This document shows positions 3,985 through 22,642 of a stretch of 40,158 bases of DNA, in pieces. Numbering within the stretch: the stretch's first letter is position 1; each line of letters begins with the position of its first letter. The translations under genes were made by a program, and so were the position numbers. The notes beneath the pieces were generated by a model, which saw only the letters and a list, made by a program, of their open reading frames with translations, was not told where the DNA came from and searched no databases. Source of the DNA: Candidatus Zixiibacteriota bacterium (GTDB taxonomy: Bacteria; SM23-81); contig DAOVRJ010000001.1 of assembly GCA_030628225.1 (NCBI GenBank), positions 1 through 40,158 on the forward strand. The letters are read 5' to 3'.

Positions 3985-3994
3985 AACCTCTCGG

Positions 3995-7453: not shown

Positions 7454-7498
7454 GCCCCCCCCAGCCTCTGAAGGTTCTTCCTCCCATCCCCTCAGCCC

Positions 7499-8515
7499 TC
7501 ACAGGCCTTCTGTTTCGGCTCGGCGCACGATCTGGAAGATCTGAACTCGCCCGTTCCCGGAGTCCAAGACGCAGAGCAAATCCGTGCCCGAGACGGCCAG
7601 GTCTATCGGCGAATGAAAGGATCCGTAGCCCGTGCCGGCGGCGCCCAGGCTGAAGAGCAATTCGCCCTGGGAGCTGAAGACGCAGATGCGATCATGGCCG
7701 GTATCGGCAACATAGAGATAGCCCTGGCCATCGGTTGCCACACCCTTCGGTCCCTTGAGCAACCCCTGACCTATGCTGCCCAGAAAACTGCCGAAGGCAT
7801 CGTAACGAGCGATGCGGTCATTTCCTGTGTCGGCAACGAAGACGGCGCTCCCGCGGCCGATTGTCAGACCCGCTGGTGTTCTTAGACGATCCGCAGCAGA
7901 GGTAAATCCTCCGAAGGAGCGTTCCAGCTCTCCGAAAGAGGTCAGTATCAACACCTGCTCGTTCTCCTCATCGCTGACATACAGCTCTCCTGTGGGAGCC
8001 ATCTCGATGTCCCGCAGGAATCCGAAAGCCAACGGCTCTTCCTCCTCCGTGGATGGTGGGATGCTGGACAGAAAGTTCAGATAGCGGTCAAAACGCTGCA
8101 CGCGCCGATTTTGAGAATCCACAACATAGATGTTTAACCCCTCCCGAGCAGACAGGCCCGTGGGCCGATTGAACCGTCCCTCACCCCATCCGAATCCCCC
8201 GATCTCCTCGATGAGGCGGCCGGCGGAATCGAATTTCTGCACCCGGTGATTCCCCGTGTCGGCCACATAGATATTCCCCTCTGGATCGACGGAGATACCC
8301 TGGGGATTCAGGAATTGGCCAGGACCGCTCCCGGGACTGCCGAAGGTCCGCTGAAACTTCAGCGCCCGGGGTGGAACGGAATGACCCGGCGCCCACCAGG
8401 AGGACCCGCTCTTTGTTCCGCTCGCCGAACAGGCCAGATATGAGCCAACGGCTAAAATCAACGCCGATGAAATCCAAATTGGAAAGTTCTGTCTGTGAAA
8501 TAGATCACTGAACAT
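7499..8515 (-). CDS. NHL-repeat beta-propeller protein with Cys-containing signal sequence (possible lipoprotein)
   Basis: Five to six NHL repeats are visible: GQFLNPQGISVDPEGNIYVADTGNHRVQKFD, GRFNRPTGLSAREGLNIYVVDSQNRRVQRFD, LRTPAGLTIGRGSAVFVADTGNDRIARYD, LKGPKGVATDGQGYLYVADTGHDRICVF and FHSPIDLAVSGTDLLCVLDSGNGRVQIFQ. I chose the ATG at 8515 (MFSDLF..., hydrophobic stretch ending SYLAC/S, GGAGAG upstream) as the start. The maximal ORF reaches 8614. Confidence 0.8.
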   Translation of the reverse strand: MFSDLFHRQNFPIWISSALILAVGSYLACSASGTKSGSSWWAPGHSVPPRALKFQRTFGSPGSGPGQFLNPQGISVDPEGNIYVADTGNHRVQKFDSAGRLIEEIGGFGWGEGRFNRPTGLSAREGLNIYVVDSQNRRVQRFDRYLNFLSSIPPSTEEEEPLAFGFLRDIEMAPTGELYVSDEENEQVLILTSFGELERSFGGFTSAADRLRTPAGLTIGRGSAVFVADTGNDRIARYDAFGSFLGSIGQGLLKGPKGVATDGQGYLYVADTGHDRICVFSSQGELLFSLGAAGTGYGSFHSPIDLAVSGTDLLCVLDSGNGRVQIFQIVRRAETEGL

Positions 8516-8648: not shown

Positions 8649-9422
8649 CTAAAAGCTCCTCTTCAGACCGATGACCACCATCGAGGAGCCGGGTGCCGGT
8701 CGCACACAGAGGGAGAGCTGGACCGGTGAGGGCCGGGAGGCGTGCTCTTTGTTGTATGCCCTGGCTGTCCTGGCGGCGTCCACGGCGCTCACCAGATGGT
8801 TGAGCAGAATGACCCCGGTCACGATGATCGCGTTGTGTTCCGCGTTGATGCTGGTCCGATAGATGGAGTCAAATTCCCTTTGCGAGCTGTCGCTGTCCCA
8901 CTCCCAGAAATCGCTCCCCGAATAGAGCTGGGCCTCCTCCCGGTAATTTATGAGCTGTCGGCTGTTATACTCCTCCATGCTGGTAAAGATACTCACGTCC
9001 TCAAAGTACTCCTTGGATTTGCCCCGGATATCGACGCCGGCGTGCGTCGCCGCATAGAGCTGGTAGTCTTCCTCTTTCCAATCGCTATAGAGGTGCAATC
9101 CCAGAAATCCAGCTAAAATAGCCAGCTCCGTTCCTAAAAAGATCCGTCCGCGACCCGGTGCCTTGGTGTAAAACTGCCCGGTGCCGGGTATCAGAAGAGA
9201 GAGAATAAAGGCTTTCGGCGCCGATCTGGACTCTGCAGATGTCAGGATAATTTCCCCGGTTTTCGCGGCCACGGGGCCCATTGCCCGGTCACTCCCCTGA
9301 GCTACCATGGATAGATCCATGAGCGTCACGATGGAGTGACTCCTGGCTTGAATGGGCAAGAATGTGATCAGCAAGCTGGCTGCCAACCCGGCGACCCACA
9401 AAAGGCCTGTATGCGCCTTCAT
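8649..9422 (-). CDS. Small membrane protein, DUF5683-like (paralog of 12495..13418)
   Basis: Start chosen at MKAHTGLLWVAGLAASLLITFLPIQA (ATG 9422), preceded by GGGGGAGGG. The maximal ORF to 9530 would overlap the upstream gene. The protein shares LSLLIPGTGQFY (hydrophobic hairpin), a Trp/Tyr/Asp/Glu-rich middle, NHLVSAVDAARTARAYN and a C-terminal ...GLKRSF with its paralog. Confidence 0.6.
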   Translation of the reverse strand: MKAHTGLLWVAGLAASLLITFLPIQARSHSIVTLMDLSMVAQGSDRAMGPVAAKTGEIILTSAESRSAPKAFILSLLIPGTGQFYTKAPGRGRIFLGTELAILAGFLGLHLYSDWKEEDYQLYAATHAGVDIRGKSKEYFEDVSIFTSMEEYNSRQLINYREEAQLYSGSDFWEWDSDSSQREFDSIYRTSINAEHNAIIVTGVILLNHLVSAVDAARTARAYNKEHASRPSPVQLSLCVRPAPGSSMVVIGLKRSF

Positions 9423-9435
9423 CTGGCCCTCCCCC

Positions 9436-12400
9436 TTATCCGTCCGAGCTAATAAAGGTAAACAAGAGATTGAAATAGACCCGCCACCCCCCCTTCTCTG
9501 CCGGGCGGTTTTCGATGGCCGGAATATCATCTAACCCATAGGCGGCTGCAAGGCTGAGCTTTGTAGGAAAGGCGTAGAAGGAAAAACAATCCAATCTGAA
9601 CTCTGCCCCAACATTTTTCTTGATATCGTCGAAGTTGACACCATCGTCATTCCAGGCCTTGCCGGCGCCGTAGAAGATGGACCCGCACAGCTTGTCAAAA
9701 TAGACCTGGAAAAACTGCTTGCTGATGTCCATCCAGATGGGAAAGCGATAAGTCACATTCCCCAAAGCTATCCGCCGGCCCTCGATGCTATAGAAGGAGT
9801 AACCCCTGAGACCCTCCTGACTGCCCAGTTGAAAGTAAAAGAAGTCGTCCACGGCCTCGTCGATCACCCCACCCTTGAGGTGCAGGATCAGAGAATGCCG
9901 TCCCCAGGGAAGAGCCCGGTATTCTTTCCAGTCCAGCCGAAACTGGTCGTAGTAGTTCTTGTAGTAAGCGGTGACGTAACCGTATTCCGTTAACTTCCCC
10001 TCGTTTGGATTGATCAGTTTGTTGAACATGCGATCGTAGCGAAGATGTATCTCCCGCCCACCCCGGGGGTTGATCTCGGCATCCCGGGCCCGGGAGATGG
10101 ATTTATAGTCCCAGCGCAGGGATATATCGTGGCCGCGAAAGTAGGTCCAGCTATCTTTGCCCAAAAGCCATCCTTCCGGATAGTGTCCTGGTACCGGCTC
10201 CCGGGTCCAGGCCTCCAGATAGACATCGTACTTACTGAAGATGTAAGCCAGGGTAAGCTCTTTCTGGTAGGTGATGGACATGGGGTCACTCCAAGCATAC
10301 CGGATCCCCAGGTCAAATTCCGTCAGATCATACCGCGTTTCCAAACCAACCAGGGTTTTATGGCCATCGATCCGGTCATATACCTGATCATCGACATGTT
10401 TGCGCAGCCGAAAGGCCTCGAAGAACAGAGTGGGGGCGAACATCCGGTTCTCGTACTGGGCATAGAAATCGAAGTCCCCATCTTTGGCCACCACGGCCGT
10501 GGCGAAAGCAGACTGCTTGCTCAATAGCTCCTGTGAAGCTAAATATAAGCCCCCCTTGAATTTGTTGTCGTCAATAACGAAACGGGGCAGGAAAAAGGTC
10601 TTGTTGAAAATGGACTTGTAGGGCCGGGACTCAAAATGGGGCGCAGCCTCCCGGTGACCTGGATTATCGCCCAGGCCGGCAATGGACGGAATATCCGCAG
10701 GCTTCCCCAGGGTCTCATCCATAGGCAACAGGAAGATCTGGTACCCATCCGAGGTGTATCCGGAATAGACCACCGTCTTCCCGTCCGGGGAAAGGGAGGG
10801 GTTGAAGGCCCCACCCACCACATTAGTCACCTGGGTCAGGCTTCCCTCGTCCAGCCTGTATACATAAAGATTGAATATTCCTCCCCGGTCCGAGGAAAAA
10901 CAAACGGTCCGACCGTCGGGGGACCAACAGGGATCGCGATCATCCTCCAGTCCCCGGATCAAGGAACAACCGCCCGTGCCATCGGTGTTGACCAGGGTCA
11001 CGTCCCGGGTCCGCTCGCGAAACGTGCTCACCAGGATCTTATCACCGCCCGATGACCAGCGGGGGCCATAATACTGGGTGCCATCCTGGTTATCCGTCAG
11101 AGTTCGAACCAGCTTCCCATCGGGATCCAGCAGGGCCAGATTGCGGGTACCGTCGCCATTGAGGACCACCAGTATAGACTGGCCATCAGGAGACCAGCGA
11201 GGATCAGTGGCCCGCAGTTCATGGGTCAGCCGCTTCTCTTTTTCGGTCTTCAGATCGTAGAGATAGATATCGTTCACATGAGAGCCGTATTTGTTAGGCT
11301 TCACCCTCTTGGCATAGACCAGCTTTTCCCCGTCCGGAGACCAGGATGCCGCCGAGCGGAGCCCTCCGGCCACCTGTTCTGCCTCCTGGGTCTCCATGTC
11401 CATCACGTAGAGGCTCATGATCTGGTAATCGCTGCCCTTGTTGGACAGATAGGCCAGCTTTGTCCCATCCGGCGACCAGGCGGGATGGATGTTCATCCAG
11501 CCCTCCTGGATTATCTTCCTGCCTTCCACCAGGTCTTTCTCCACCATCCTCTGCTGGTCCTGATACTCGTCCAGCATGTGTTCATGCCATTCGCGGTAAA
11601 GCTGTTTTTCCGATCTTCCAGTGACCTTCTTTATGGCCGAACCGAAGTTATACCGCCATGGGCTCCTCATAGCCCGACACAGGTCTTTCAGGCTCTTGGG
11701 CCCATATTTCTCGGCGATGTACCGGGTCAGGGAAAATCCCTGGTTGTAAACCATCTCGTTGCCCAGCCCGATCTTTCCAAATCCGCCCATCTCGTCGCAA
11801 CTTAGCAGCTTGTCGCCCAGGACACCCATGCGCAGCAGCATGTCCCGGTGGGTGTCCCAGGACTCATGATCGAGGGAAGGGGCCTGGTACTGGGCCAGCC
11901 CTTCGGCAAACCACAGGGGAACCACCGTCCCGGGCAGGGGATAAGATATGATCACGTTGGGGTACCCGCTGATTACATCGGGCCTCTTCTCCTTCTCATA
12001 GCCGATGTACTGCAGGTAGAAGGATGGCAGCCACTGGGGAAACTTGCGGGCCAGCTGCAGGGAGACCATGTGAGTGAACTCGTGGGTGATGACGTTGCGC
12101 AGCCAGTGGTGCATGCCCCGCAGCTCCCAGTCCATCTGGGTGGCCCAGATGGCGATCTTGTTCTCATAGTAGTAGGCCATTCCATTGGCATAGTCGTCGG
12201 TATCGTAGATGATCAGGTCCACCACCTGGGGTAGCGGATAGTCATAGAGAGAGGTGATCGGATCATATATCTCCTCGGCGATCTGTGCCGCCAACTGGGC
12301 GGTACGCTCGGCACCCTGGTGGTAGTGAATCCGGAAGTGCTCCCTCTCAATGGTGCGCCATTCCAGCTCCGGATGGTTATAGGCCCAAGCTTGGCCCACC

Positions 12401-12453
12401 GCGATCAAGAGGATGGCCAGACAGATCATGATATGTGAGATCCGAACGTGCAT
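9436..12453 (-). CDS. Fusion protein: HExxH (Peptidase_MA-like) domain + six PD40/TolB-type propeller repeats + C-terminal Omp85-type beta-barrel
   Basis: Signal peptide MHVRISHIMICLAILLIAVGQAWA (ATG 12453; the maximal ORF starts at TTG 12498). VITHEFTHMV lies at nt 12070-12084, with WFAEGLAQY about 55 aa later (gluzincin-like). PD40 repeats: WSPDGTKLAY, WSPDGEKLVY, WSPDGQSILV, WSSGGDKILV, WSPDGRTVCFSSDRGG, LSPDGKTVVYSG. The aromatic-rich C-terminal ~390 aa contain QLGSQEGLRGY...NVTYRF (LRGY at nt 9799-9810). This aligns with the KLGGARTLRGY...NLEYRF motif of the Omp85 protein at 2200..3984. Confidence 0.7.
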   Translation of the reverse strand: MHVRISHIMICLAILLIAVGQAWAYNHPELEWRTIEREHFRIHYHQGAERTAQLAAQIAEEIYDPITSLYDYPLPQVVDLIIYDTDDYANGMAYYYENKIAIWATQMDWELRGMHHWLRNVITHEFTHMVSLQLARKFPQWLPSFYLQYIGYEKEKRPDVISGYPNVIISYPLPGTVVPLWFAEGLAQYQAPSLDHESWDTHRDMLLRMGVLGDKLLSCDEMGGFGKIGLGNEMVYNQGFSLTRYIAEKYGPKSLKDLCRAMRSPWRYNFGSAIKKVTGRSEKQLYREWHEHMLDEYQDQQRMVEKDLVEGRKIIQEGWMNIHPAWSPDGTKLAYLSNKGSDYQIMSLYVMDMETQEAEQVAGGLRSAASWSPDGEKLVYAKRVKPNKYGSHVNDIYLYDLKTEKEKRLTHELRATDPRWSPDGQSILVVLNGDGTRNLALLDPDGKLVRTLTDNQDGTQYYGPRWSSGGDKILVSTFRERTRDVTLVNTDGTGGCSLIRGLEDDRDPCWSPDGRTVCFSSDRGGIFNLYVYRLDEGSLTQVTNVVGGAFNPSLSPDGKTVVYSGYTSDGYQIFLLPMDETLGKPADIPSIAGLGDNPGHREAAPHFESRPYKSIFNKTFFLPRFVIDDNKFKGGLYLASQELLSKQSAFATAVVAKDGDFDFYAQYENRMFAPTLFFEAFRLRKHVDDQVYDRIDGHKTLVGLETRYDLTEFDLGIRYAWSDPMSITYQKELTLAYIFSKYDVYLEAWTREPVPGHYPEGWLLGKDSWTYFRGHDISLRWDYKSISRARDAEINPRGGREIHLRYDRMFNKLINPNEGKLTEYGYVTAYYKNYYDQFRLDWKEYRALPWGRHSLILHLKGGVIDEAVDDFFYFQLGSQEGLRGYSFYSIEGRRIALGNVTYRFPIWMDISKQFFQVYFDKLCGSIFYGAGKAWNDDGVNFDDIKKNVGAEFRLDCFSFYAFPTKLSLAAAYGLDDIPAIENRPAEKGGWRVYFNLLFTFISSDG

Positions 12454-12494: not shown

Positions 12495-13418
12495 TCAAAA
12501 TCTCTTGGTTAAGGTGATCTTGGGGATAGCCTTTCCGGCGTAGATATCCATCCCCATGCGCAGCTCAGGATAACCGGCTTCCTCCAGGGATCGCCGGTTA
12601 AAGGCCTTGGCGGCTAAAGCGGCATCCAGGGCGCTGATCACGTGGTTGAACAGGCTGGCGCTGATCCCCCAGGTGGCTCGCTTGAGCAGGTCGTTGGCGT
12701 CGCCGCGCAGGTTAGCATATCTGTCTCGATTCACAGTGGCCGTGGCGTCGCCCCCGCGGCAGATGTCCCGAGTGGTCTGATCGAATGTATAGCCCAAAAG
12801 GGAATCATTGGGGGCGAAATCGCCGGGAAGGTAATCCTGCGGGTTGCCGACCCAACCAAAGGAGAACTGGTCGTATTTGCCGATCATCTCGTAGTAATCG
12901 CCGTCCTTCTGAGCAGGCAGGTGGTGGGTGAACATCTTATCGAAATCGGGATCGTTGTCCCCCTTACGGGCGTCGTACCAGTCCTCCCAGTCGCGATACC
13001 AATCAAGATAAGCATCTTCGGACCACTCGACGTCGGCGAAATCCATGTACTCGTCCTCCTTGTCCTTGCCGGAGCTGTGCTGGGTAAAATACCATGCCCA
13101 GGAAGCCGTCTCTACAGCCAAGAAACCTATGGCCCTCTTCTCAGCCCCAACGTAGAGCTCTCCCATACCGGGAATGATCGCCGAAAACAGCAGGGCCTTG
13201 CCCGGGGACTTCAATCCCGGCGTGCCGGCGGGAATTCCCTCCACGAAAACCGGCTGCTGACCAACTTTCTGGGCCACCTCCCCCACCGACGGCTGTGCTC
13301 TTAGAAAATGCTCGCCGATCACACCAACCCCAGGACCGACGTCGGCCAGCGCTGTGCTGCCCAAGGCCAGCATCGTGCAGACAAGAACCAGAGACCGGAA
13401 AACGGACGTGCCTTTCAT
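12495..13418 (-). CDS. Small membrane protein, DUF5683-like (paralog of 8649..9422)
   Basis: Start chosen at MKGTSVFRSLVLVCTMLALGSTALA (ATG 13418), preceded by AAGGAGGGGG. The maximal ORF to 13622 overlaps the upstream gene. Motifs: FSAIIPGMGELY, an acidic/aromatic middle (DWYRDWEDWYD), NHVISALDAALAAKAFN and a C-terminal ...TLTKRF. Confidence 0.6.
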   Translation of the reverse strand: MKGTSVFRSLVLVCTMLALGSTALADVGPGVGVIGEHFLRAQPSVGEVAQKVGQQPVFVEGIPAGTPGLKSPGKALLFSAIIPGMGELYVGAEKRAIGFLAVETASWAWYFTQHSSGKDKEDEYMDFADVEWSEDAYLDWYRDWEDWYDARKGDNDPDFDKMFTHHLPAQKDGDYYEMIGKYDQFSFGWVGNPQDYLPGDFAPNDSLLGYTFDQTTRDICRGGDATATVNRDRYANLRGDANDLLKRATWGISASLFNHVISALDAALAAKAFNRRSLEEAGYPELRMGMDIYAGKAIPKITLTKRF

Positions 13419-13446: not shown

Positions 13447-16400
13447 TTATTTGACCACCGCAATTTTGCAAAAAACCGTTTCTTGATACCCTCCTCCCCG
13501 AGCCTCCACCCGGCATAGGTAAACCCCGCTAACCACATCGGACAGATCCCAGACCACCTCGTTCTCCGTGTGGGCGAACCCTGTGCCGGGCAGATCGGCC
13601 ACCAGATCGCCGGACAGATCATAGATGCGAATGTCGACCTCGGCCTCCTGACCGAGCCGATACCGTATCGTGGTGCTCTGTCCTTCAGTGGGATTGGGAT
13701 AGTTGTACACCGAGGCCGCGGGCATCAGCTCCCCGGCCTGGGGAGGCGAGGGAAGTTCGCAGATGGGGAAACCCCCCGTGTGTCTGAAATCGTGCCCCCA
13801 GGTGGGCCAGGGGAGCTGAGCAGAGTCGGGCTCTGCCGCCAGGTCCCACACATACATCCACCCGGCCTCATCTCCGGCCAGGATCTCGATGTCCCCATCG
13901 CCGTCGATGTCGGCCAGGGTCGGCGAGGAGTTGACCGCCCCGGCACAGGCCAGGGGCCAGCCCTGCAGTGGATCCCCGAATCTGTCGTGGGCCACCAAAA
14001 GGCCCGCAGGAGTGCCCACCACGATGTCCACCTGCCCATCCCCATCCACATCACCCAGGATGGGCGAGGATTTCATGGTACCAGTATCCTTCAAAGGAAT
14101 GGGAAAGTTCGACACCGGCGAGACGTTGTAGTTCCAGGCCCAGATCTCATCGGTTCCGACAACCACTACCTCCAGATAGCCATCGCCGTCGATGTCTCCC
14201 AGGACTGGCGAACTACTCAAGGGACCTTCTATCTGCACTGGCCAACCGGTGGTCAGATGTCTATACAAATCCCAGACATAAATCTGCCCCCCGGCACAAG
14301 TGGCAATAATCTCCACAATTTGATCATCCCGATCTAAGTCTCCCCAAACCAATCCCATAATCTCTGCTGGAGTTTGAATAACACGAGGTTCTATAGAACC
14401 TTCCCCCAAGGGACAGAACGTAAACACTTGACCGTTAGCCGTTCCGGCGATTACTCTATAAACGAAAGGCCATGAAGCACCGTCGGCAACAGTCAGTGCC
14501 GTAATAGTACTTTCTCCCAGGTTAACCCGCCAGGTGATTTTATCCTCCTCGCCGGGAGCCAATTCGTATACCCAGCCGTTGGCAGTCCCCACCACAATCC
14601 TCGTCCCGCAAAAAACGCCGGGTACTCTAATCAACAAAGCGGCACTAGAAATAGGACTCTCCACGTTAAAAGGAAACCCATCAAGCTCTTCTCCGTCGTG
14701 ATTCCAGCAGTGGACATCTCCGCTCACGGCGCCCAGAACGATTTCCTGATCACCATCCTCATCCAGGTCGCCCAGGGCAGCAGAACCCGCGATGGAATCC
14801 GCCAACTGGACGAACAGAGCCGAGCTGTCCGCTCCGGGCAGAAACGGCGTTCCGTCATGATTCCACACAAAGACCCGGCCATCAGGAGTATTCATCACGA
14901 TCTCCATGTCCCCATCGCCATCCAGATCACCCACCAGGGGCGGATTTTCGGCCAGGGAAACCGCCATCGAATCGGGCCAGCCGGGCTGGTACGTGTCGAT
15001 GGACACGTCGCAGGTCATGGTCGCCCCCGAGGGGCCTATCCCAGTCACGAAAATGTGGCTGTCGGCCCCGCTGTAGCTGTTGGAGTTTGGGTTCGAGGTA
15101 GGCGTGAAGGCCGTGTTGTTGCCCTGGTAGAAGGCATCCTCGGGCATGCCATAGGTGACATAGCCCCCGTAGAGGATGTGGCCGATGTCCTGAAAACCGT
15201 CGGCCTCCTCCAGATCCACCCCCCGGTGGTAGGGGTCGGCGTTGACGGTATTGCTCTCGTAGTTCTCCCGGATGACCTTCTCGTCCACGTGCCAGATGAG
15301 CAGACCCGATCCGGGGATGCCCCAGTCGTACTCGTCCACCTCCAACAGGACCCCACCCTCGATCTGGGCCACGATGCTGTCCCCCCAGGCGTCTCGCTGA
15401 CGGTTCTCGATCAGGAAATACTCGTCGGCATTGATGGGCACTTTCAGCACGGTGGTGTTGGAGCCCCTCACCACCAGGGCATCAATGGCCACCTCCAGGC
15501 TGTCCCGCACCAACACGGGCCTCTCCCAGCCTAAAAAGATCCGCGACCAGGCGCAGGGCACCGCGGGGATCAGGCCCAGCTCGTTGCCGGAGCCCTGGTC
15601 CATCAGGCCCCAGGACCCGATGCCCGAGGAGCCATCCGCGCTGTTGTACAGATTGGGCAGCCCCAACCGATGTCCGAACAGCAGGGCCATCAACCCGGTG
15701 AGGCCGAACTCGACATCCCGCTGGTTGAGGGTCTCCGGCATCCACAGGCCCTCCTGGACAAGATAGGTTCCTCCGTTCACCGGCACTCCCTGAGCATACT
15801 GGGAGCCCAGGGACTGGCTCAGCCATTCCAGGTCCATGTAGGCCGAGGGAATATCGTTTGGCGTCTCGTCGTAAGAGAAAGCGATGTCCGCCCCCACTCC
15901 GGCGTGAAAGATGACCAGGGCATCGAACTGAGAGAAATCGATGGTGCCGGCGGCATCCGCCGTCTCCAAAGCATCCCGGAAGAACTCCGCCAGCCGCCGG
16001 TCGTTCTCCGACTCGGTGAGATTGGGGCTGTAGTAGGCCATCTCGTTGGGCAGAGTGTAGGCCGCATCATTCTCCTGCGGATAGACCTCGCAGGAGAAAT
16101 CCAACAACCCCCGGGAGACGTTCAGATAGTATCTGTGCAGGGCCTCCATCTGTCGTTGAAAATATATCCTGTCATGAGGCGGCGGGTTTATGACCTCGTC
16201 GGAGCTGGCGGAAAGGTCAAACTTGCCCGTGCCGGTTGTGGTGGAGGTGGTATCTGGGAGAAAGTCAACCCGGATGGCCAGAACGGCCTGGGGAAACTCC
16301 TCCGCAGAAACGGTCAGCCCGGCGGCCGGATCGCCCTGCACCAGATCGGCCCGATGGAAACCTTCTCTGCCGCAACGAAGAACCATACCGACATGATCGC

Positions 16401-16518
16401 TCTCGGCCCCCGCCGGGAGAGCGATAAAACAGAGGGCCGAAACTGTGGCCAGACCGGCAATAGAAACGGCAATTCTTCTGATCTTCATCGACTGCTCTCG
16501 CCTCCGCTTATGGATCAT
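13447..16518 (-). CDS. Exported M6 (immune-inhibitor-A)-like pseudo-metalloprotease domain + ~8 FG-GAP/VCBS propeller repeats + T9SS-type C-terminal sorting domain
   Basis: Signal peptide MKIRRIAVSIAGLATVSALCFIALPAGA (alternative ATG at 16488). M6-like blocks are present: VIFHAGVGAD, ALLFGHRLGLPNLYN (in place of AHEFGHxLGLPDLYD), GIGSWGLMDQGSG, LLIWHVDE and LEEADGFQD. FG-GAP-type repeats: GDLDGDGDMEIV, GDLDEDGDQEIV, GDLDRDDQIVEII, GDIDGDGYLEVVV, GDVDGDGQVDIVV, ADIDGDGDIEILA, plus two degenerate blades. The C-terminal 89 aa (nt 13450-13716) read NYPNP..TTIRYRL..VDIRIYDLSGDLV..GVYLCRVEA..KIAVVK, which fits a T9SS type-A CTD / FlgD-Ig-like pattern. Confidence 0.7.
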   Translation of the reverse strand: MIHKRRREQSMKIRRIAVSIAGLATVSALCFIALPAGAESDHVGMVLRCGREGFHRADLVQGDPAAGLTVSAEEFPQAVLAIRVDFLPDTTSTTTGTGKFDLSASSDEVINPPPHDRIYFQRQMEALHRYYLNVSRGLLDFSCEVYPQENDAAYTLPNEMAYYSPNLTESENDRRLAEFFRDALETADAAGTIDFSQFDALVIFHAGVGADIAFSYDETPNDIPSAYMDLEWLSQSLGSQYAQGVPVNGGTYLVQEGLWMPETLNQRDVEFGLTGLMALLFGHRLGLPNLYNSADGSSGIGSWGLMDQGSGNELGLIPAVPCAWSRIFLGWERPVLVRDSLEVAIDALVVRGSNTTVLKVPINADEYFLIENRQRDAWGDSIVAQIEGGVLLEVDEYDWGIPGSGLLIWHVDEKVIRENYESNTVNADPYHRGVDLEEADGFQDIGHILYGGYVTYGMPEDAFYQGNNTAFTPTSNPNSNSYSGADSHIFVTGIGPSGATMTCDVSIDTYQPGWPDSMAVSLAENPPLVGDLDGDGDMEIVMNTPDGRVFVWNHDGTPFLPGADSSALFVQLADSIAGSAALGDLDEDGDQEIVLGAVSGDVHCWNHDGEELDGFPFNVESPISSAALLIRVPGVFCGTRIVVGTANGWVYELAPGEEDKITWRVNLGESTITALTVADGASWPFVYRVIAGTANGQVFTFCPLGEGSIEPRVIQTPAEIMGLVWGDLDRDDQIVEIIATCAGGQIYVWDLYRHLTTGWPVQIEGPLSSSPVLGDIDGDGYLEVVVVGTDEIWAWNYNVSPVSNFPIPLKDTGTMKSSPILGDVDGDGQVDIVVGTPAGLLVAHDRFGDPLQGWPLACAGAVNSSPTLADIDGDGDIEILAGDEAGWMYVWDLAAEPDSAQLPWPTWGHDFRHTGGFPICELPSPPQAGELMPAASVYNYPNPTEGQSTTIRYRLGQEAEVDIRIYDLSGDLVADLPGTGFAHTENEVVWDLSDVVSGVYLCRVEARGGGYQETVFCKIAVVK

Positions 16519-16524
16519 GAACCG

Positions 16525-17490
16525 TTAAAATCTGGCCGTCAGGGAAAAACGCATGGTATCGGCCAGCGGGTGCCCTTCCTGTGCCGTGATGTATCCGAAA
16601 TCGAAGCGAAAAAAATCGTACTGCAGACCAGCACCGAAGGTGGCCGTCTTCACCTGCCCATATTTGTCATAGATGTAACCGGCTCTCAGGGCCAGTAACT
16701 GGGCATACCAATACTCGGATCCGAAATTCGCCCACCATTCTCCTCCCACCAGTCCGATATTCAGCTCGCCACTCAGCAGAAAATCGTTGTACTGAGTGTC
16801 AAAAAGCTGATAGGCGGTCCCTATCTTCAAGTTCCGTGGTAAGGAGCTGGATTGGTTGGCATCTACGTACATGATGTCCGGCCCGATGTTCTGTAACAAT
16901 GCACCGGCACTCAGTCGGGGAATCAAGTCCCGGGAGAGGATTCCCACATCGGCGGCGTAGCTCATGGCCCGGCCATCTCCCTTCTCCACATTCTGGCCCG
17001 GGCCCAGATCGCTGTAAATGACCTTCAGGTTTACCCCCGCGGCGACACTTTCGGACAGCAGCGCCCCCAGAGAACCGCAGATGGCCAGCTCGTAGCTATG
17101 GTGCCAGCCCAGGATTTCCGGGCCATATTCTGAAGTGTAGGGCATATTTCCGTAGGAGAAGTAGATGATATGTCCCCCAAAAGTTCCCACTCCCTTCCAG
17201 GCAGCTGACCAGCAGACGAAATTATAGTACATGTCGGAGGTGAATTCTGGAAACCATTTAGTGTGCATGAAGGTTACTTCAGTGCCTCGTTGAAAGCCCA
17301 GGCCGGCGGGGTTCCAATAGGAGGCGGTGGCATCGTCGGCCACGGCCACAAAAGACTCCCCCATTCCACTGGCTCTGGCCCCGGGCGCGATCATCAGAAA
17401 CAGCACCCCGGACTGGCTAACGGCGAAACATGTGGCAGCGGGCAGGATGCTCACCAAAATGATGCCGCCGAGCAACAGGCTCCTTTTCAT
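16525..17490 (-). CDS. PorV/PorQ-family outer-membrane beta-barrel protein (copy B)
   Basis: 321 aa with a signal peptide ending CFA. The N-terminal motif APGARASGMGESFVAVADDATASYWNPAGLGF is typical of the PorV/PorQ (UPF0164-like) family. It ends in ...MRFSLTARF. It is the same length as the upstream paralog and about 60% identical by eye. Confidence 0.65.
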   Translation of the reverse strand: MKRSLLLGGIILVSILPAATCFAVSQSGVLFLMIAPGARASGMGESFVAVADDATASYWNPAGLGFQRGTEVTFMHTKWFPEFTSDMYYNFVCWSAAWKGVGTFGGHIIYFSYGNMPYTSEYGPEILGWHHSYELAICGSLGALLSESVAAGVNLKVIYSDLGPGQNVEKGDGRAMSYAADVGILSRDLIPRLSAGALLQNIGPDIMYVDANQSSSLPRNLKIGTAYQLFDTQYNDFLLSGELNIGLVGGEWWANFGSEYWYAQLLALRAGYIYDKYGQVKTATFGAGLQYDFFRFDFGYITAQEGHPLADTMRFSLTARF

Positions 17491-17522
17491 CCTTCACCCT
17501 TCCGCTGTGTGAGTCTTTCCTT

Positions 17523-18488
17523 TTAGAACTTCACCGACAGAGAGAAACGCATGGTGTCGGCCAGAGGATGTCCTTCCTTCTCCGGGATGTACCCGAAATC
17601 AAAACGGTATCGATTGTACTGCAGACCCGCCCCGAAAGTGGGCGTTTTGATCTCCCCGTAATCGTCGTAGATGTACCCTGCTCTCAGAGCCAGAATCGTC
17701 GAGTACCAGTACTCGATGCCAGCATTGCCGCGAAACTCCTCCTCCACCAAACTGCTGTTCAACTCGACGGTGGCAAGCAGGTTGTTGTACTCAGATTCTA
17801 TGATCTTATAGGAGACACCCAGTTTCAGGTTTCTGGGCAGTGGACTGGATTGCTCGGCGTCGATGTACATAATGCTCGGCCCCAGGTTCTGTACCATGCC
17901 TCCAATTTTCAATTTGGGCCAGGGACCCTTGTACAGGACACCTACATCCACGGCGTAGCTCATGGCTTTGCCATCGCCCTTTTCCACATTTTGGCCTGGA
18001 CCCAGGTTGCTGTAAATGCCCTTCATGTTCACTCCCACGCAGAGCTCCTCGGACACATTGGTTCCATAGGAAAGACAGCCGGCGATCTCGTAGCTCTCGA
18101 AGAGGTATTGCACCTCCGGGCCGAACTCAGTTGTATAGGGGATCTTGCCGTAGGTCAGGTAAAGGATGTGTCCTCCAATACCTCCCCAACCATCAACATA
18201 ATGGGTGTAGCTCAAGAAATCATAGTACATGTCATCGGCGAATTGTGGAAACCACTTGCTATGCATAAAAGCCAGCTCTTTTCCCCTCATAAAACCGAGG
18301 CCGGCTGGATTCCAATAGGAGGCGGTAGCATCGTCGGCAACGGCCACAAAGGCTTCTCCCATTCCGCTGGCTCTAGCCCCTGGCGCGATCATCAGAAAAA
18401 GCACTCCCGCCCGGCTCACAGCAAAGCTGGAGGAGGCGGTCACCAGTACCATAAGAAGAGTGATGCCCAGAAGCAGAAATTTCCTCAT
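17523..18488 (-). CDS. PorV/PorQ-family outer-membrane beta-barrel protein (copy A)
   Basis: 321 aa. Signal peptide MRKFLLLGITLLMVLVTASSSFA with a GGAGGA SD. Motif APGARASGMGEAFVAVADDATASYWNPAGLGF. It ends in ...MRFSLSVKF. It lies directly downstream of the C25/PorU-like gene, matching the known porU-porV adjacency in Bacteroidota. Confidence 0.65.
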   Translation of the reverse strand: MRKFLLLGITLLMVLVTASSSFAVSRAGVLFLMIAPGARASGMGEAFVAVADDATASYWNPAGLGFMRGKELAFMHSKWFPQFADDMYYDFLSYTHYVDGWGGIGGHILYLTYGKIPYTTEFGPEVQYLFESYEIAGCLSYGTNVSEELCVGVNMKGIYSNLGPGQNVEKGDGKAMSYAVDVGVLYKGPWPKLKIGGMVQNLGPSIMYIDAEQSSPLPRNLKLGVSYKIIESEYNNLLATVELNSSLVEEEFRGNAGIEYWYSTILALRAGYIYDDYGEIKTPTFGAGLQYNRYRFDFGYIPEKEGHPLADTMRFSLSVKF

Positions 18489-18589: not shown

Positions 18590-21500
18590 TCAGCGCATAA
18601 CCACCACCTTTCCGTAAGCTTCGGTTCGCTTTCCTTCAACGCGAGCAATGATCTTATATAGATAGACACCGTTGGCCACGCGATCCCCATCCTGGTCCTC
18701 TCCTTCCCAGGGTTGGCTCTCGTTGTAGCCAGGAGCTATTTCCCCCTGTTCCAAAGTACGGATGAGCCTGCCGGCCACGGTGTAGATCCTGATGGTCACT
18801 CTGGCCGGACAGCTGAGCTGGTAAGTGAACCGGGTGTTCTCCGACTGAGGGTTGAAGGGATTTGGACAGTTCAGCACATTGCGCAGGAACAGCTCTCCCT
18901 CTTCCATAACCTCAAAATCCAGGGTGACCGTAGAGAAGTTGTTGAAGTTGTCCCACGCCTTCATGGTCAATGTATGCAATCCAACGCTTAACCCCTCCAG
19001 GGTATAGTTCAGCATACCCCGCTGGTAACTTCCCAGGTCGTAGTTAAACCTGTCGGTCACGTTGACACGCTGGGCATCCTCATCGACAGTCAGAACGATC
19101 CAGTGTCCCACCTCTCCGGTGATGTTGATGCCGTTCTCATCCTCCAGGTAAGCGACGATTGTAGAATTGGACGGCACAAAATCTCCGGGGGCGAACTGTT
19201 GACCGGCGATGCTCAGTTCTATTGCCGGGCCGATAGTATCTACCACCGCCGAGGCAGTGCCTTGAACCGGCAACGAATCCAGATAGGCCAAACCATCTCT
19301 GCTCTGGTCGTTGAGGTACGCGCTAATCCGGGCCATGCGCCCCCCGTAGCTGATGTCCTTGGGCACCACGAAGGTGGCCTCAAAATTGCCCTCCTCCACC
19401 AGGCAGGATCCTCGAAAAAGGGTGGCGCCGGGCAAAAGATAGTATATCTTGGACCCAACCTTGGTTGTGTACGTGGTGGCCCGGGCGGAATCAAAAACCC
19501 GCAAAGAGACGCTCCCCTGAAAAGTTGTATCCGGAACGCCCCGAGAAAAAACCTGCCCCTGAACAGTAACCCGATCCAGGGCCTTCAGAGTATCCCGGGA
19601 CATGCTGGTGATGTGGCTCTCCAGCTCCGGGCTTCCCAGCCTCATGCACGGGTCGCCAAAAAGAGCGTACTTCTGGTCGTTGCTGTACGAATTGGGTCGG
19701 CTGAGCTTGGCCCCGAACAGTCCCTCCCCCAGGGTGAGATCTTCGTTGCCTAAGACCAAGCGCAGAAACTCCTTATTCAGCTCGGCATTGGGGGTGGCAT
19801 AACAATACCTGGTGGCCCCTATGGTGGCCACGGCACCACTGTCCTTGACCCTGAGCAGCTCCTCAGACATGGATTCGTTGAGCGTGTGGTCGAACCTGCC
19901 CACATCGCAGGAGGCGGAGTAGACCAGGGGCAGACTCTGCCCATTGGTCAGCCTGGGGATATCATTGGAGCCTCGAAAAGCATCCTCATGAGCCCAGACG
20001 TCGAAGTTCCCATGTCCAATCCAATTGACCACCAGCATCCCCTCGTTGAATCCATCGATGACCGCCTGCTGTGCCTCCGGCTTCTTGTTGGACCAGTCCA
20101 TGGGGTATTCCGTCAGGTAGACCTTATGCTGGTCATAGGAGGGGGAAATGAAATTCCGGGCCAGGTCTTCGCTATCCCGGGTGTGAAAGAGCTCGTTGCC
20201 CTCGCCGTTAGCGGCAGTCTCGTCATCGGAGACGATCATCACCCGGCTGCGCCAGGGTCCGAAGAAGGGATCTAACACATAATCGGTTATTTTACCCACC
20301 ACCACACCGGCCTCCTCCTCGGAGCGCACCGGCAGACGCCCGATCATCATATCTGCCAGATAATCTCCGTCCAGGCGTACAAACCAGTCATCGGTGCACA
20401 AATCTCCCATCTCATAGGGAGGAATTAAGTTAGACCCTCCGGCACCGGAGTTATTCTTGTAATCGAAGTTTCCATCTCCAAAGAGCAAAATGTATGCCGG
20501 GGGAACCACTTGCCTCTGATTATAGGCAAACCACAGATAATCCCGTATGGCCGTGGGATCAACCAGCCCCCAGGCGAACCGGTCGTACACATCCTCGATG
20601 GTGGCCACCACAACGCGCATTCCCTCCTGGCGGTGCAAATTCACCAGAGGCTCCAAGCTTTCCTGAAACGCACGGGGTGTTACCACGATCAGATCGGCAC
20701 TCACCTCCCGCAGATTCGCCGGGATTCGCCTTTCCACGGAAAGGGGGGACACATATGCCTGCGGCGTGGCCGCATAATAGCGCCTCGGCTCCGCAACGGA
20801 CAGGTTTTCCTGAAAACGGAGAGTGTAGTGATCCTCCTGGAAGAACACCGAACCATCGGTGATCCGCACGGGCATATACGGATCGCTTACATCGAGCAAG
20901 AGAATCTGGGCCTCGGAGAAACCCGCCAGATCGTACTGTATGGTCCCCGAGGTGTCCGGGCTGGAGAAGTACAGCTGGTCCTCCACAACCTGATATCCCC
21001 GCCAGTACTCGATCTCGAACCAGTCGAACAAAATATGATCCCACTCGGACTCGACCCGGGGAAGCACGATTGTAAGGGTGTTCTCCCCCTCCCGCAATCC
21101 CTCGGTCTCTCCGTCGGCGACGATTGCCACGGCACCATACCAGAGTCGCTCGATGGTCGGATAAGGGCTGCCGTTCAGATAAAAATAGACATGATGGGGT
21201 ATGGATGAAGGTATCGATCCGGAGGACTTGTAGTAGATGCCCTTGACCCGCACCTTGAGCTGGCAGGATTCGTCTGCTACCCCCTCCAGGGTCACGCGGT
21301 GCTCCTCGGTCTCAGCCCCATGCCCCGTCATGCTGTCCCAGTACCAGGTGAGTCCTGAATAGCTCGGGTTCAGGTAATCGCGCTCCTGATGCGCAGTGGT
21401 CCTGAACCGCTCTGCCTGAATGTATGTGGTCGACTGCGCAGCTCCCGGTCGGATTTCCATCCTCCTGCCCGGCTCCCCCCCATAAGTCAGCCAGTAAACA

Positions 21501-22642
21501 TTGAGGTCCGTATAGGGGTTGGCATATTCGCTGTACCCCCCTTCAGACATCTCCTCCCATCCGGAGAGATCGGTGGCGTAGAAAAGAATCTCGTCCTCCG
21601 GGTCCAGACGACCGTCATCCTGACCGGAGATGGAGATGGGGATCTCCACCATGGTTGGCGGATTCCCCACCTGACGGGGCAGAATTTTGCATCCTATATT
21701 GTAGATTTTGATAGTCGCGGGATCCACCATCGCCAGGTCTAATCCGGCCTGGTTTAGTTCAGTGGATGTCAGCCGACAGATCCCCTCCAGCCGCAGGGAG
21801 ATCTTGAACCAGTCGTCCGATGAGGAAAAGGGGTCATCGCCCCGGATGATTCCTCTGGCAGAGGATCGGGGGCGCGTGCGCCAATTTCGGGCCTGTTCAT
21901 AGTTCAACAGGCTGAACCGGTAAACTCTCTCAAACAGATCTTCGCCGCTTTCATCTTCAACTTCCGGCAATGATGGGCTGAATTGTACCTGAACGACGAT
22001 GCGGCGGTGAATCCGGACCGTCCTGGTCACGGGATTAAACTGCACCGGATAAAGAACCAGCGGAATGACCCGTTGATGTCTCAAAAAGGCCGCCTGCTGG
22101 GCAACACAAATCTCTGCCGGGAAAAAGGCGTCTGCTTGGTACACCTTCCCGTCAGGCTGATAGACGGTCTCGTAAAATGAAGCATCCTCGCCCTTTCCGC
22201 GGAAGGCTCGAGGGCCCGGAGCCAGGAAAACGTCCTGCCGCTCTTCGAACTCATCCTCCAGAATGGAGAAGGACACCACTGCCTGGGGTGGAAACCCGAT
22301 GTTCACGGCCTGCATAGGCAGCATGGGAATACCTTCCCGGACGGCCATGTCGCAGCCCGGCAGGCTAAGTAGCTGAAAAATATCCTCTCCGCCCTCTCCG
22401 GGCAGATTCACCACCGAGGCCTCTGCGGCCAGGAACTCTAAAACCAGGCCATCTCGGCCTGAACTCATCAGGCGAACCGAGCTCAGCTCCTCGCCACTGA
22501 GAGGCATCGCTGCCAGCAAAACCACAACGGTCGCTAAAAACGCCAGATCCCTCAAATTCTCAGCCTTCGCTTTCACAATAAAAAAACCGAGCGACAGGGA
22601 CACCCACACCCCCTTTGTCAACCCGGCACGTTGATCGATCAA
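18590..22642 (-). CDS. Peptidase C25 (gingipain)-family protein with T9SS-type C-terminal domain; PorU-like candidate T9SS sortase/CTD peptidase
   Basis: 1350-aa maximal ORF. C25-type blocks: LIVVTPRAFQESLEPLVNLHRQEGMRV, PAYILLFGDGNFDYKN, catalytic-His context VNWIGHGN (CAT at 20012-20014) and catalytic-Cys context VYSASCDVGRFD (TGC at 19907-19909, 35 residues later). The C-terminal 99 aa (nt 18593-18889) read NCPNPFNP..TRFTYQL..VTIRIYTVAGRLI..GVYLYKIIA..GKVVVMR, a T9SS CTD pattern. The start is uncertain: TTG at 22642; GTG at 22576 gives (M)KAKAENLRDLAFLATVVVLLAAMPLSG, which looks like a signal peptide. Confidence 0.7.
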   Translation of the reverse strand: MIDQRAGLTKGVWVSLSLGFFIVKAKAENLRDLAFLATVVVLLAAMPLSGEELSSVRLMSSGRDGLVLEFLAAEASVVNLPGEGGEDIFQLLSLPGCDMAVREGIPMLPMQAVNIGFPPQAVVSFSILEDEFEERQDVFLAPGPRAFRGKGEDASFYETVYQPDGKVYQADAFFPAEICVAQQAAFLRHQRVIPLVLYPVQFNPVTRTVRIHRRIVVQVQFSPSLPEVEDESGEDLFERVYRFSLLNYEQARNWRTRPRSSARGIIRGDDPFSSSDDWFKISLRLEGICRLTSTELNQAGLDLAMVDPATIKIYNIGCKILPRQVGNPPTMVEIPISISGQDDGRLDPEDEILFYATDLSGWEEMSEGGYSEYANPYTDLNVYWLTYGGEPGRRMEIRPGAAQSTTYIQAERFRTTAHQERDYLNPSYSGLTWYWDSMTGHGAETEEHRVTLEGVADESCQLKVRVKGIYYKSSGSIPSSIPHHVYFYLNGSPYPTIERLWYGAVAIVADGETEGLREGENTLTIVLPRVESEWDHILFDWFEIEYWRGYQVVEDQLYFSSPDTSGTIQYDLAGFSEAQILLLDVSDPYMPVRITDGSVFFQEDHYTLRFQENLSVAEPRRYYAATPQAYVSPLSVERRIPANLREVSADLIVVTPRAFQESLEPLVNLHRQEGMRVVVATIEDVYDRFAWGLVDPTAIRDYLWFAYNQRQVVPPAYILLFGDGNFDYKNNSGAGGSNLIPPYEMGDLCTDDWFVRLDGDYLADMMIGRLPVRSEEEAGVVVGKITDYVLDPFFGPWRSRVMIVSDDETAANGEGNELFHTRDSEDLARNFISPSYDQHKVYLTEYPMDWSNKKPEAQQAVIDGFNEGMLVVNWIGHGNFDVWAHEDAFRGSNDIPRLTNGQSLPLVYSASCDVGRFDHTLNESMSEELLRVKDSGAVATIGATRYCYATPNAELNKEFLRLVLGNEDLTLGEGLFGAKLSRPNSYSNDQKYALFGDPCMRLGSPELESHITSMSRDTLKALDRVTVQGQVFSRGVPDTTFQGSVSLRVFDSARATTYTTKVGSKIYYLLPGATLFRGSCLVEEGNFEATFVVPKDISYGGRMARISAYLNDQSRDGLAYLDSLPVQGTASAVVDTIGPAIELSIAGQQFAPGDFVPSNSTIVAYLEDENGINITGEVGHWIVLTVDEDAQRVNVTDRFNYDLGSYQRGMLNYTLEGLSVGLHTLTMKAWDNFNNFSTVTLDFEVMEEGELFLRNVLNCPNPFNPQSENTRFTYQLSCPARVTIRIYTVAGRLIRTLEQGEIAPGYNESQPWEGEDQDGDRVANGVYLYKIIARVEGKRTEAYGKVVVMR

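Follow-up and report, generated by a model that had tools for sequence, protein, structure and literature searches.

An Omp85-type barrel encoded behind porU and porV bears a TolB-like propeller and a putative zinc peptidase and lacks POTRA domains

Here we describe a gene of a Candidatus Zixiibacteriota bacterium whose product combines an Omp85-type β-barrel of 16 strands with an N-terminal arm made of a Peptidase_MA_2 domain and a TolB-like PD40 propeller, and which has no POTRA domain. The gene lies in a stretch of 40,158 nucleotides (GenBank assembly GCA_030628225.1, contig DAOVRJ010000001.1, positions 1 to 40,158; from here on, the window) and is part of a row, porU-porV-M6i-target-DUF5683-like, that is conserved in several phyla of the Fibrobacterota-Chlorobiota-Bacteroidota (FCB) group. 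The central machinery of outer membrane biogenesis consists of Omp85 proteins, nearly all of which, among those studied, use POTRA domains. The protein is a member of the WD40-like Omp85 subfamily, and all three domains of that subfamily were found in it. Its most probable role, toward which we lean by a modest measure, is that of a zinc peptidase that is anchored in the outer membrane, faces the periplasm, is gated by its propeller, and acts together with the sorting stage of the type IX secretion system (T9SS).

Results

Conservation and domain order of the protein

The features of the gene and of its neighbors are collected in Table 1. The open frame encodes a real, conserved protein and is no product of chance, since more than 2,362 full-length relatives were found at E ≤ 0.001 (8,000 scored candidates from a collection of 5.8 billion proteins). 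Among the 120 relatives listed, identity to the target ranges from 36 to 96%, and query coverage is 94 to 100% in nearly all. The relatives come from Zixibacteria, Latescibacteria, Krumholzibacteria, Calditrichaeota, and KSB1 and go by database names such as "BamA/TamA family outer membrane protein," "PD40 domain-containing protein," and "Tol biopolymer transport system component." A scan with one genome per species gave at least 580 loci and added Ignavibacteriota, Bacteroidota, Gemmatimonadota, Kryptonia-like bacteria, LCP-89, and Handelsmanbacteria. Within the phylum, the orthogroup is single-copy in all six of the six genomes. An internal TAA in the orthologues of three same-phylum genomes (G001 to G003) proved to be merely the terminal stop, and these genes are intact.

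Conservation was read from an alignment of 45 diverse members that are 39 to 79% identical to the target. Peptidase_MA_2 and PD40 were matched in 45/45 of them, the Pfam Omp85 family (PF01103) in 23/45 with a best E value of 1.2e-11, and POTRA in 0/45. The full-length AlphaFold2 model has a mean predicted local distance difference test score (pLDDT) of 86.2 and a predicted TM score of 0.85; the region of the signal peptide appears in it as an N-terminal helix (residues 2 to 19), with low confidence at residues 18 to 29.

Table 1. Features of the target gene and of its row in the window (positions in the window; −, reverse strand)
Feature	Position	Strand	Basis
Whole gene, exported peptidase-propeller-Omp85 barrel protein, 1005 aa	9436..12453	−	Open frame, stop codon included
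Sec signal peptide, residues 1-24, cleavage after AWA (...LLIAVGQAWA/YNHPE)	12382..12453	−	Direct sequence reading
Peptidase_MA_2 gluzincin-type metallopeptidase domain, residues ~25-305	11539..12381	−	Pfam
HEFTH zinc-binding/catalytic motif, residues 124-128 (H124, E125, H128)	12070..12084	−	Alignment
WFAEGLAQY motif, residues 181-189, presumed third zinc ligand E184	11887..11913	−	Alignment
PD40/TolB-like β-propeller, six-bladed, residues ~306-578	10720..11538	−	Pfam and TolB structure matches
Linker, residues 579-619, partly disordered, invariant Y612	10597..10719	−	AlphaFold2 and alignment
Omp85-type β-barrel, 16 strands, residues 620-1005; invariant P623 and R624 near its start	9439..10596	−	AlphaFold2, Foldseek, hhalign
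Loop-6 motif GLRGY, residues 881-885, counterpart of BamA VRGF, between strands 11 and 12	9799..9813	−	Alignment, hhalign
Strand-13 motif F-x-(D/E)-x-G-x-A-W; acidic position is Gly929 here	9652..9678	−	Alignment
β-signal-like C-terminal last strand WRVYFNLLFTF	9454..9486	−	Conserved consensus W-R-x-Y-F-x-L-x-F-G-F
PorU, T9SS sortase, C25 peptidase	18590..22642	−	NF033707, 742 bits (cut-off 420)
Two tandem PorV-family barrel genes (17523-18488 and 16525-17490)	16525..18488	−	Pfam PorV; NCBIfam PorV_fam, 236 bits
M6i, T9SS-dependent M6-like inactivated metalloprotease with C-terminal sorting domain	13447..16518	−	NF052323, 534 bits (below cut-off of 600); Por_Secre_tail
Upstream DUF5683-like paralogue, 307 aa, ending ...TLTKRF	12495..13418	−	Reciprocal jackhmmer with downstream copy
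Downstream DUF5683-like exported protein, 257 aa, ending ...GLKRSF	8649..9422	−	Pfam DUF5683, weak, below cut-off

The 16-stranded barrel is of the Omp85 type

The model folds residues 620 to 997 into 16 long strands, of which the first and the last are short in comparison, and strands 11 and 12 are joined by a long loop (residues 865 to 893) that bears GLRGY and takes the place of BamA loop 6. A Foldseek search with the full-length model matched the propeller alone (TolB, S9 peptidases), and the barrel was therefore modeled separately (pLDDT, 88.6). With this barrel-only model, the top 50 matches in the PDB were all BamA, TamA, or Sam50 (probability, 1.00; TM score, 0.41 to 0.63), including BamA of Flavobacterium johnsoniae (9n2d; E = 6.6e-8), TamA of Pseudomonas aeruginosa, BamA of Escherichia coli, and Sam50. 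Furthermore, hhalign aligned the family barrel with the four POTRA-bearing Omp85s of the same genome at a probability of 98.65% (E = 4.9e-16), pairing loop 6, a strand-13 motif F-x-D-x-G-x-x-W, and the last strand with those of the canonical proteins. The whole-family profile reached TamA barrels in the PDB at E values of 0.19 to 0.45, so that a search of a hidden Markov model against sequences does not establish Omp85 membership by itself. The 16-stranded Omp85-type barrel of the original prediction is thus borne out by the fold and by the profile comparison.

Conservation of the barrel motifs fits this assignment. Residue 883 of loop 6 is Arg in 39/45 and Lys in 6/45 sequences, and G884 and Y885 are invariant. 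An alignment of this loop with that of the POTRA-bearing Omp85 encoded nearby (2200-3984) had been claimed before; it was reproduced by hhalign, which sets GLRGY against TLRGY, with the trivial correction that the spacer following the motif is 13 residues in both proteins and not 12. In strand 13, the Phe is kept in 39/45, the acidic residue (D or E) in 41/45, and the Trp in 34/45 sequences, and the motif aligns with FLDAGHYF of the canonical Omp85. In BamA, the acidic residue at this position pairs with the Arg of loop 6. Many relatives terminate exactly at the final Phe of the last-strand motif. A search with the barrel alone against 1.8 billion cluster representatives gave 423 matches at E ≤ 0.001; most of the 150 full-length barrel matches listed are about 1000 aa long with the barrel at about residues 600 to 1000, and the shorter ones are probably fragments. 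The lengths and barrel positions of these matches tie the barrel clade to the peptidase-propeller arm.

The arm carries a gluzincin-type peptidase and a propeller, and no POTRA domain

Peptidase_MA_2 scores 42.3 bits on the full protein and 47.1 bits when the domain is scanned alone (cut-off, 32.4), and AlphaFold2 predicts a mixed α/β fold up to about residue 305 with a pLDDT of about 90. H124, E125, H128, and E184 are invariant in the 45 sequences, which gives the HExxH plus downstream Glu signature of MA-clan gluzincins, and the same holds for W181, A183, G185, and Q188 around the second motif. HEFTH stands exactly at the nucleotides that had been given for it before. The four catalytic and zinc-binding residues are also intact in both paralogues of the same genome. 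Such invariance is the pattern expected of an active gluzincin, and, to judge from the sequence, the peptidase is probably catalytically active. The motif WFAEGLAQY resembles the WLNEG motif of the M1 family. When the domain sequence was searched against the PDB, nothing was found beyond a weak match to the collagenase ColG (E = 0.34).

The middle domain is a propeller of the TolB type. PD40 scores 112.9 bits in total on the full protein, with 5 repeats at about residues 320 to 570, and the model has 23 strands in blade-like groups at residues 312 to 577, which fits six four-stranded blades; the six repeats proposed earlier therefore agree with the predicted structure, although Pfam detects one fewer. 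TolB structures match this part at an E value of about 1e-14 by sequence and are the top Foldseek matches of the full-length model. The TolB equivalog model TIGR02800 reaches 155 bits (cut-off, 343) and aligns with the propeller part alone. DPPIV_N of Pfam also matches the propeller, and the precomputed domains of relatives bear the labels Tricorn_N and Tricorn_2nd.

No POTRA match was obtained at E ≤ 1 with the full protein or at E ≤ 10 with linker and barrel. The linker (residues 579 to 619), whose pLDDT falls below 50 at residues 590 to 601, lacks the helices and strands of a POTRA domain and is too short to leave room for one. The absence of POTRA domains that had been noted from the sequence thus extends to cryptic copies between propeller and barrel.

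Two paralogues of the same architecture, with 951 and 1057 aa, are encoded elsewhere in the genome (contigs C59:11407-14262, reverse strand, and C171:3835-7008, forward strand). In both, the HExxH motif (HELVH or HELTH) is accompanied by W-x-x-E-G-L-A-E-Y and by PD40 repeats, and the Omp85-like barrel has RGY as well as the canonical F-x-D-x-G-x-A-W.

A row of genes behind porU and porV is conserved across FCB phyla

The genes in the window run on one strand in the order PorU, two PorV, M6i, DUF5683-like, target, DUF5683-like, NHL propeller, a 1152-aa protein, and an Omp85 with three POTRA domains, and the gaps on the two sides of the target are 13 to 41 nt. This place behind porU and porV is the most informative fact about the gene and was absent from the original prediction. 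The row is repeated in a relative at 69% identity (L001), with the DUF5683-like gene in the same upstream position, and a shorter form, PorV-M6i-target-DUF5683, is found in Calditrichota and KSB1.

To count such neighborhoods, open reading frames were called in 84 loci and searched with the proteins of the window. At least 60% query coverage was demanded, since shared C-terminal domains (CTDs) make any T9SS cargo resemble M6i or PorU. PorV lies within 5.5 kb upstream on the same strand in 60 of the 67 loci with enough flank; M6i is directly upstream on the same strand in 59/72 loci, and a DUF5683-like gene, often overlapping or only a few bases apart, is directly downstream in 57/74. PorU follows further upstream on the same strand in 31 of 57 loci with at least 9 kb of flank. 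With U for PorU, V for PorV, M for M6i, T for the target, and D for DUF5683-like, the orders seen most often are V-M-T-D-D, in 20 loci, and U-V-M-T-D, in 17. These counts cover Zixibacteria-like bacteria, Latescibacterota, KSB1, Calditrichota, Ignavibacteriota, Bacteroidota, and Gemmatimonadota. The lineage of the target has the order M-D-T-D, whereas most other phyla have M-T-D-D.

In the family tree, the orthogroup parts with full support from the two paralogues of its own genome. Eight loci free of this context form three small clades inside the orthogroup, the largest in Krumholzibacteria/Latescibacterota. Their confinement to three small clades points to secondary relocation or loss and not to another ancestral state.

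The genome also has the SprA translocon. A jackhmmer search of it (2.34 Mb in 306 contigs) gave about 20 paralogues of the PorV family, along with many tens of proteins that carry T9SS sorting domains. This repertoire of T9SS cargo and shuttle proteins is very large for such a small genome.

The DUF5683-like neighbors have a signal peptide followed by the motifs K-S-P-x-K-A-f-l-l-S-l-l-l-P-G-x-G-e-x-Y, Q-Q-Y-Y-E-x-I-G-K-Y, and N-H-x-x-S-A-i-D-A. Past the signal peptide their hydrophobicity is moderate, and they look helical and soluble and not barrel-like, except for a C-terminal hairpin. An aromatic residue ends 91 of the 102 DUF5683-like neighbors (64 Phe, 25 Trp, 2 Tyr), and an alternating hydrophobic stretch precedes it (for example, ...LTLTQKF and ...ALSMRLSW), which has the look of an outer membrane β-signal. 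From these sequences, the proteins could be ordinary clients of the β-barrel assembly machinery (BAM), or their C-terminal strand could bind at the seam of the Omp85 barrel encoded next to them. PG0140, a DUF5683 protein of Porphyromonas gingivalis, has been found in one proteome of outer membrane vesicles.

Discussion

In sum, the target is one more member of a family that was first catalogued in 2014, and its gene row gives this family a concrete context. A "WD40-Omp85" or "WD40-like" cluster was defined in a survey of the Omp85 superfamily (Heinz and Lithgow 2014, Front Microbiol 5:370, PMC4104836), where its propeller was likened to TolB and BamB and its design to a fusion of BamA with BamB. 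Table S3 of that survey gives the members a BamA/TamA barrel match, a TolB match, and a "best aminopeptidase hit" (1z5h, 4kxd, 4fgm, and others), and among them are H1XQ58 of Caldithrix, D0MEQ5 of Rhodothermus, and proteins of Chloroherpeton, Cloacimonas, Sideroxydans, myxobacteria, and others (PMC4104836). Because all three parts are listed there, the three-part design was already known, and the architecture is less novel than first proposed; the statement in the original prediction that PD40-Omp85 designs exist in databases and are uncharacterized was correct. The passages of the 2014 text that we found discuss the propeller alone and take up neither a function nor the peptidase nor a link to the T9SS (PMC4104836). 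Caldithrix, a carrier listed in 2014, is among the loci analyzed here (L017, L076). In the literature, we found no later functional work on WD40-like Omp85s, a name that we met in only one other paper, and our literature searches turned up no link between them and T9SS genes; among NCBIfam models, none was found for the subfamily.

Between the target and the WD40-like Omp85s there is no structural difference, as they share the barrel, the N-terminal TolB-like PD40 propeller, and the lack of POTRA domains (PMC4104836). With BamA and TamA, it has in common the 16 strands, the RG(F/Y) of loop 6, a strand-13 motif of the F-x-D-x-G type, and the C-terminal aromatic strand, but it differs by having an enzyme arm and no POTRA, by lacking the strand-13 acid, and by its very distant sequence (best TamA profile, E = 0.19). 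TolB offers the best structural and sequence match to the middle domain, a six-bladed PD40 propeller; the target, however, joins its propeller to a peptidase and a barrel and is encoded in the porU-porV row and not beside tol-pal genes. A propeller beside a peptidase domain is also found in prolyl oligopeptidase and DPP-IV (S9) and in tricorn with its M1 partner F3, and M1-like matches are given in Table S3 (PMC4104836). These are soluble cytoplasmic or periplasmic enzymes of the serine (S9, tricorn) or M1 type, whereas the target is a Peptidase_MA_2 zincin on an outer membrane barrel. As for the attachment complex of P. gingivalis (PorU-PorV-PorQ-PorZ), the genes of PorU and PorV head the row of the target, but no Omp85-type or zinc-peptidase subunit is among its components, or among T9SS components in general, as named in the literature that we found.

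In our model, the arm faces the periplasm. The strand number is even, and loop 6 joins strands 11 and 12 just as it does in BamA and TamA; this would place both ends of the barrel in the periplasm, and therefore the peptidase-propeller arm would hang in the periplasm under the outer membrane. By analogy to prolyl oligopeptidases, DPP-IV, and tricorn, the propeller may admit only peptides or unfolded chains to the zinc site. As the synteny suggests, the peptidase might act together with PorV and PorU at the T9SS sorting stage and could trim or clear periplasmic polypeptides at the outer membrane, for example T9SS cargo that is stalled or mis-targeted or pieces of sorting signals, with the DUF5683-like protein(s) perhaps as bound partners. 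That the target belongs to any T9SS complex is what we hypothesize from the synteny. It is imaginable, though on balance doubtful, that PorV, M6i, the target peptidase, and the DUF5683-like protein make up an unrecognized T9SS sub-complex of the outer membrane in most FCB phyla outside the model Bacteroidia. The seam of the barrel would then hold the C-terminal strand of the DUF5683-like protein as a stable hybrid, like the intermediate of BamA with its substrate, and beneath PorV the propeller-gated peptidase would act on T9SS cargo or sorting signals, either to process or to clear them.

A function of the barrel itself has to be weighed against this model. It might be a working insertase or translocase with a lateral gate, with the DUF5683-like protein, PorV, or M6i as client or partner and with the arm processing the client; this is the coupled processing/insertion device that was suggested originally. 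As in BamA and its substrates, strand 1 of the barrel would pair with the β-signal-like strand of the DUF5683-like protein, and indeed the aromatic C-termini of these proteins (91/102), the position of their genes directly downstream and often overlapping or a few bases apart, and the conservation of the loop-6 (R/K)GY, the strand-13 motif, and the short first and last strands as in functional Omp85s are consistent with this idea. The target lacks POTRA domains, although mitochondrial Sam50 works even without POTRA (PMC4104836). However, DUF5683-like proteins look helical and soluble outside their C-terminal hairpin, a terminal aromatic residue is expected of any BAM client, and insertion needs no peptidase, so that we regard an insertase as unlikely. 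The neighborhood might instead reflect mere co-regulation of envelope genes, the protein being a general housekeeping peptidase that is anchored in the outer membrane, faces the periplasm, and serves quality control or peptide scavenging unrelated to the T9SS. Sideroxydans, Myxococcus, Sorangium, and Vibrio are not known to have a T9SS. These Proteobacteria have WD40-like Omp85s too (Table S3, PMC4104836), the two paralogues in the target's own genome lie elsewhere, and one orthologue clade is gone from the porV row. Against such a housekeeping role stands the V-M6i-T-D order on one strand in about 80 to 90% of loci, over at least seven phylum-level lineages and at protein identities of 37 to 45%; conservation of this kind is far beyond what is usual for co-regulated but unrelated envelope genes and makes the role decidedly improbable.

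Two further readings concern the arm. The HExxH domain may be a non-catalytic binding module and the protein a TolB-like tether or scaffold between the outer membrane and a periplasmic partner. The neighboring M6i is a clear pseudo-protease, so dead proteases are used in this row, and the propeller of TolB itself serves as a binding platform (PMC4104836). However, the invariance of 4/4 catalytic and zinc residues in 45 diverse sequences and in both paralogues would be unexpected if catalysis were dispensable, and we hold a purely structural role to be very unlikely. The arm could also be a passenger that reaches the surface through or beside its own barrel, and the protein thus a surface protease near PorU and M6i, both of which carry CTDs and therefore end up outside. 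The model for this would be type Vd secretion by the patatin-Omp85 protein PlpD, which likewise combines an Omp85 barrel with a hydrolase domain at the N-terminus. PlpD retains POTRA, and its lipase passenger is exported and released. TolB-like PD40 propellers are typically periplasmic, and most likely the arm of the target, which unlike PlpD-type proteins has no POTRA domain, is periplasmic as well. The 41-residue linker could span the barrel lumen, and PlpD is a precedent for the delivery of an N-terminal enzyme domain to the surface by an Omp85 barrel (PMC4104836). With loop 6 predicted in its usual place and a tightly folded two-domain passenger of 550 residues, which a 16-strand barrel is unlikely to accommodate, surface export is nevertheless the least probable of the readings set out here.

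Several observations speak against an outer-membrane-anchored peptidase at the T9SS sorting stage. Gene adjacency is no proof of a functional link, and with about 20 PorV paralogues in the genome a single adjacency means little; therefore, conservation across phyla alone carries weight. In the Krumholzibacteria/Latescibacterota clade, the HExxH is intact and the gene lies away from porV, and therefore the protein can function without the porU-porV neighborhood; both paralogues in the target's genome likewise sit outside the row. As to the barrel, PF01103 gave no match on the full protein and only a marginal one with the C-terminal 423 aa alone (24.1 bits; cut-off, 24), and the acidic position of strand 13 is Gly in 3/45 sequences, the target included. 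The periplasmic location of the arm is deduced from Omp85 topology, and no biochemical or genetic data on any family member were found in the literature.

For the target gene alone, our results are mostly confirmatory, as it is another member of a catalogued family. The family itself is large (more than 2,300 relatives, in the genomes of at least 580 species), carries, in place of POTRA, a propeller and a zinc peptidase that looks active, and has gone unstudied since the catalogue of 2014. Its fixed place behind porU and porV, beside a dead protease that is T9SS cargo, now provides a concrete functional context and suggests that additional parts act at the T9SS sorting stage in many FCB lineages outside the model species. 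If this is true, the textbook parts list of the T9SS, built on Porphyromonas and Flavobacterium, is incomplete.

Additional observations

The region of the window at 2200-8515 encodes the NHL propeller, the 1152-aa exported protein, which has no Pfam domain and a weak local match to SprA (E = 2e-6), and the TamA-sized Omp85 with three POTRA domains. This trio is kept in the relative at 69% identity (L001, 14025-20314) and was not seen in the more distant loci examined. Behind the paralogue on contig C59, the same strand encodes a repeat-rich protein and a large barrel protein, which by eye look BamB-like and receptor-like, respectively, and then a protein with a CTD and a barrel of the PorV family (jackhmmer). 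A gene that by eye resembles ppiD lies nearby on the opposite strand.

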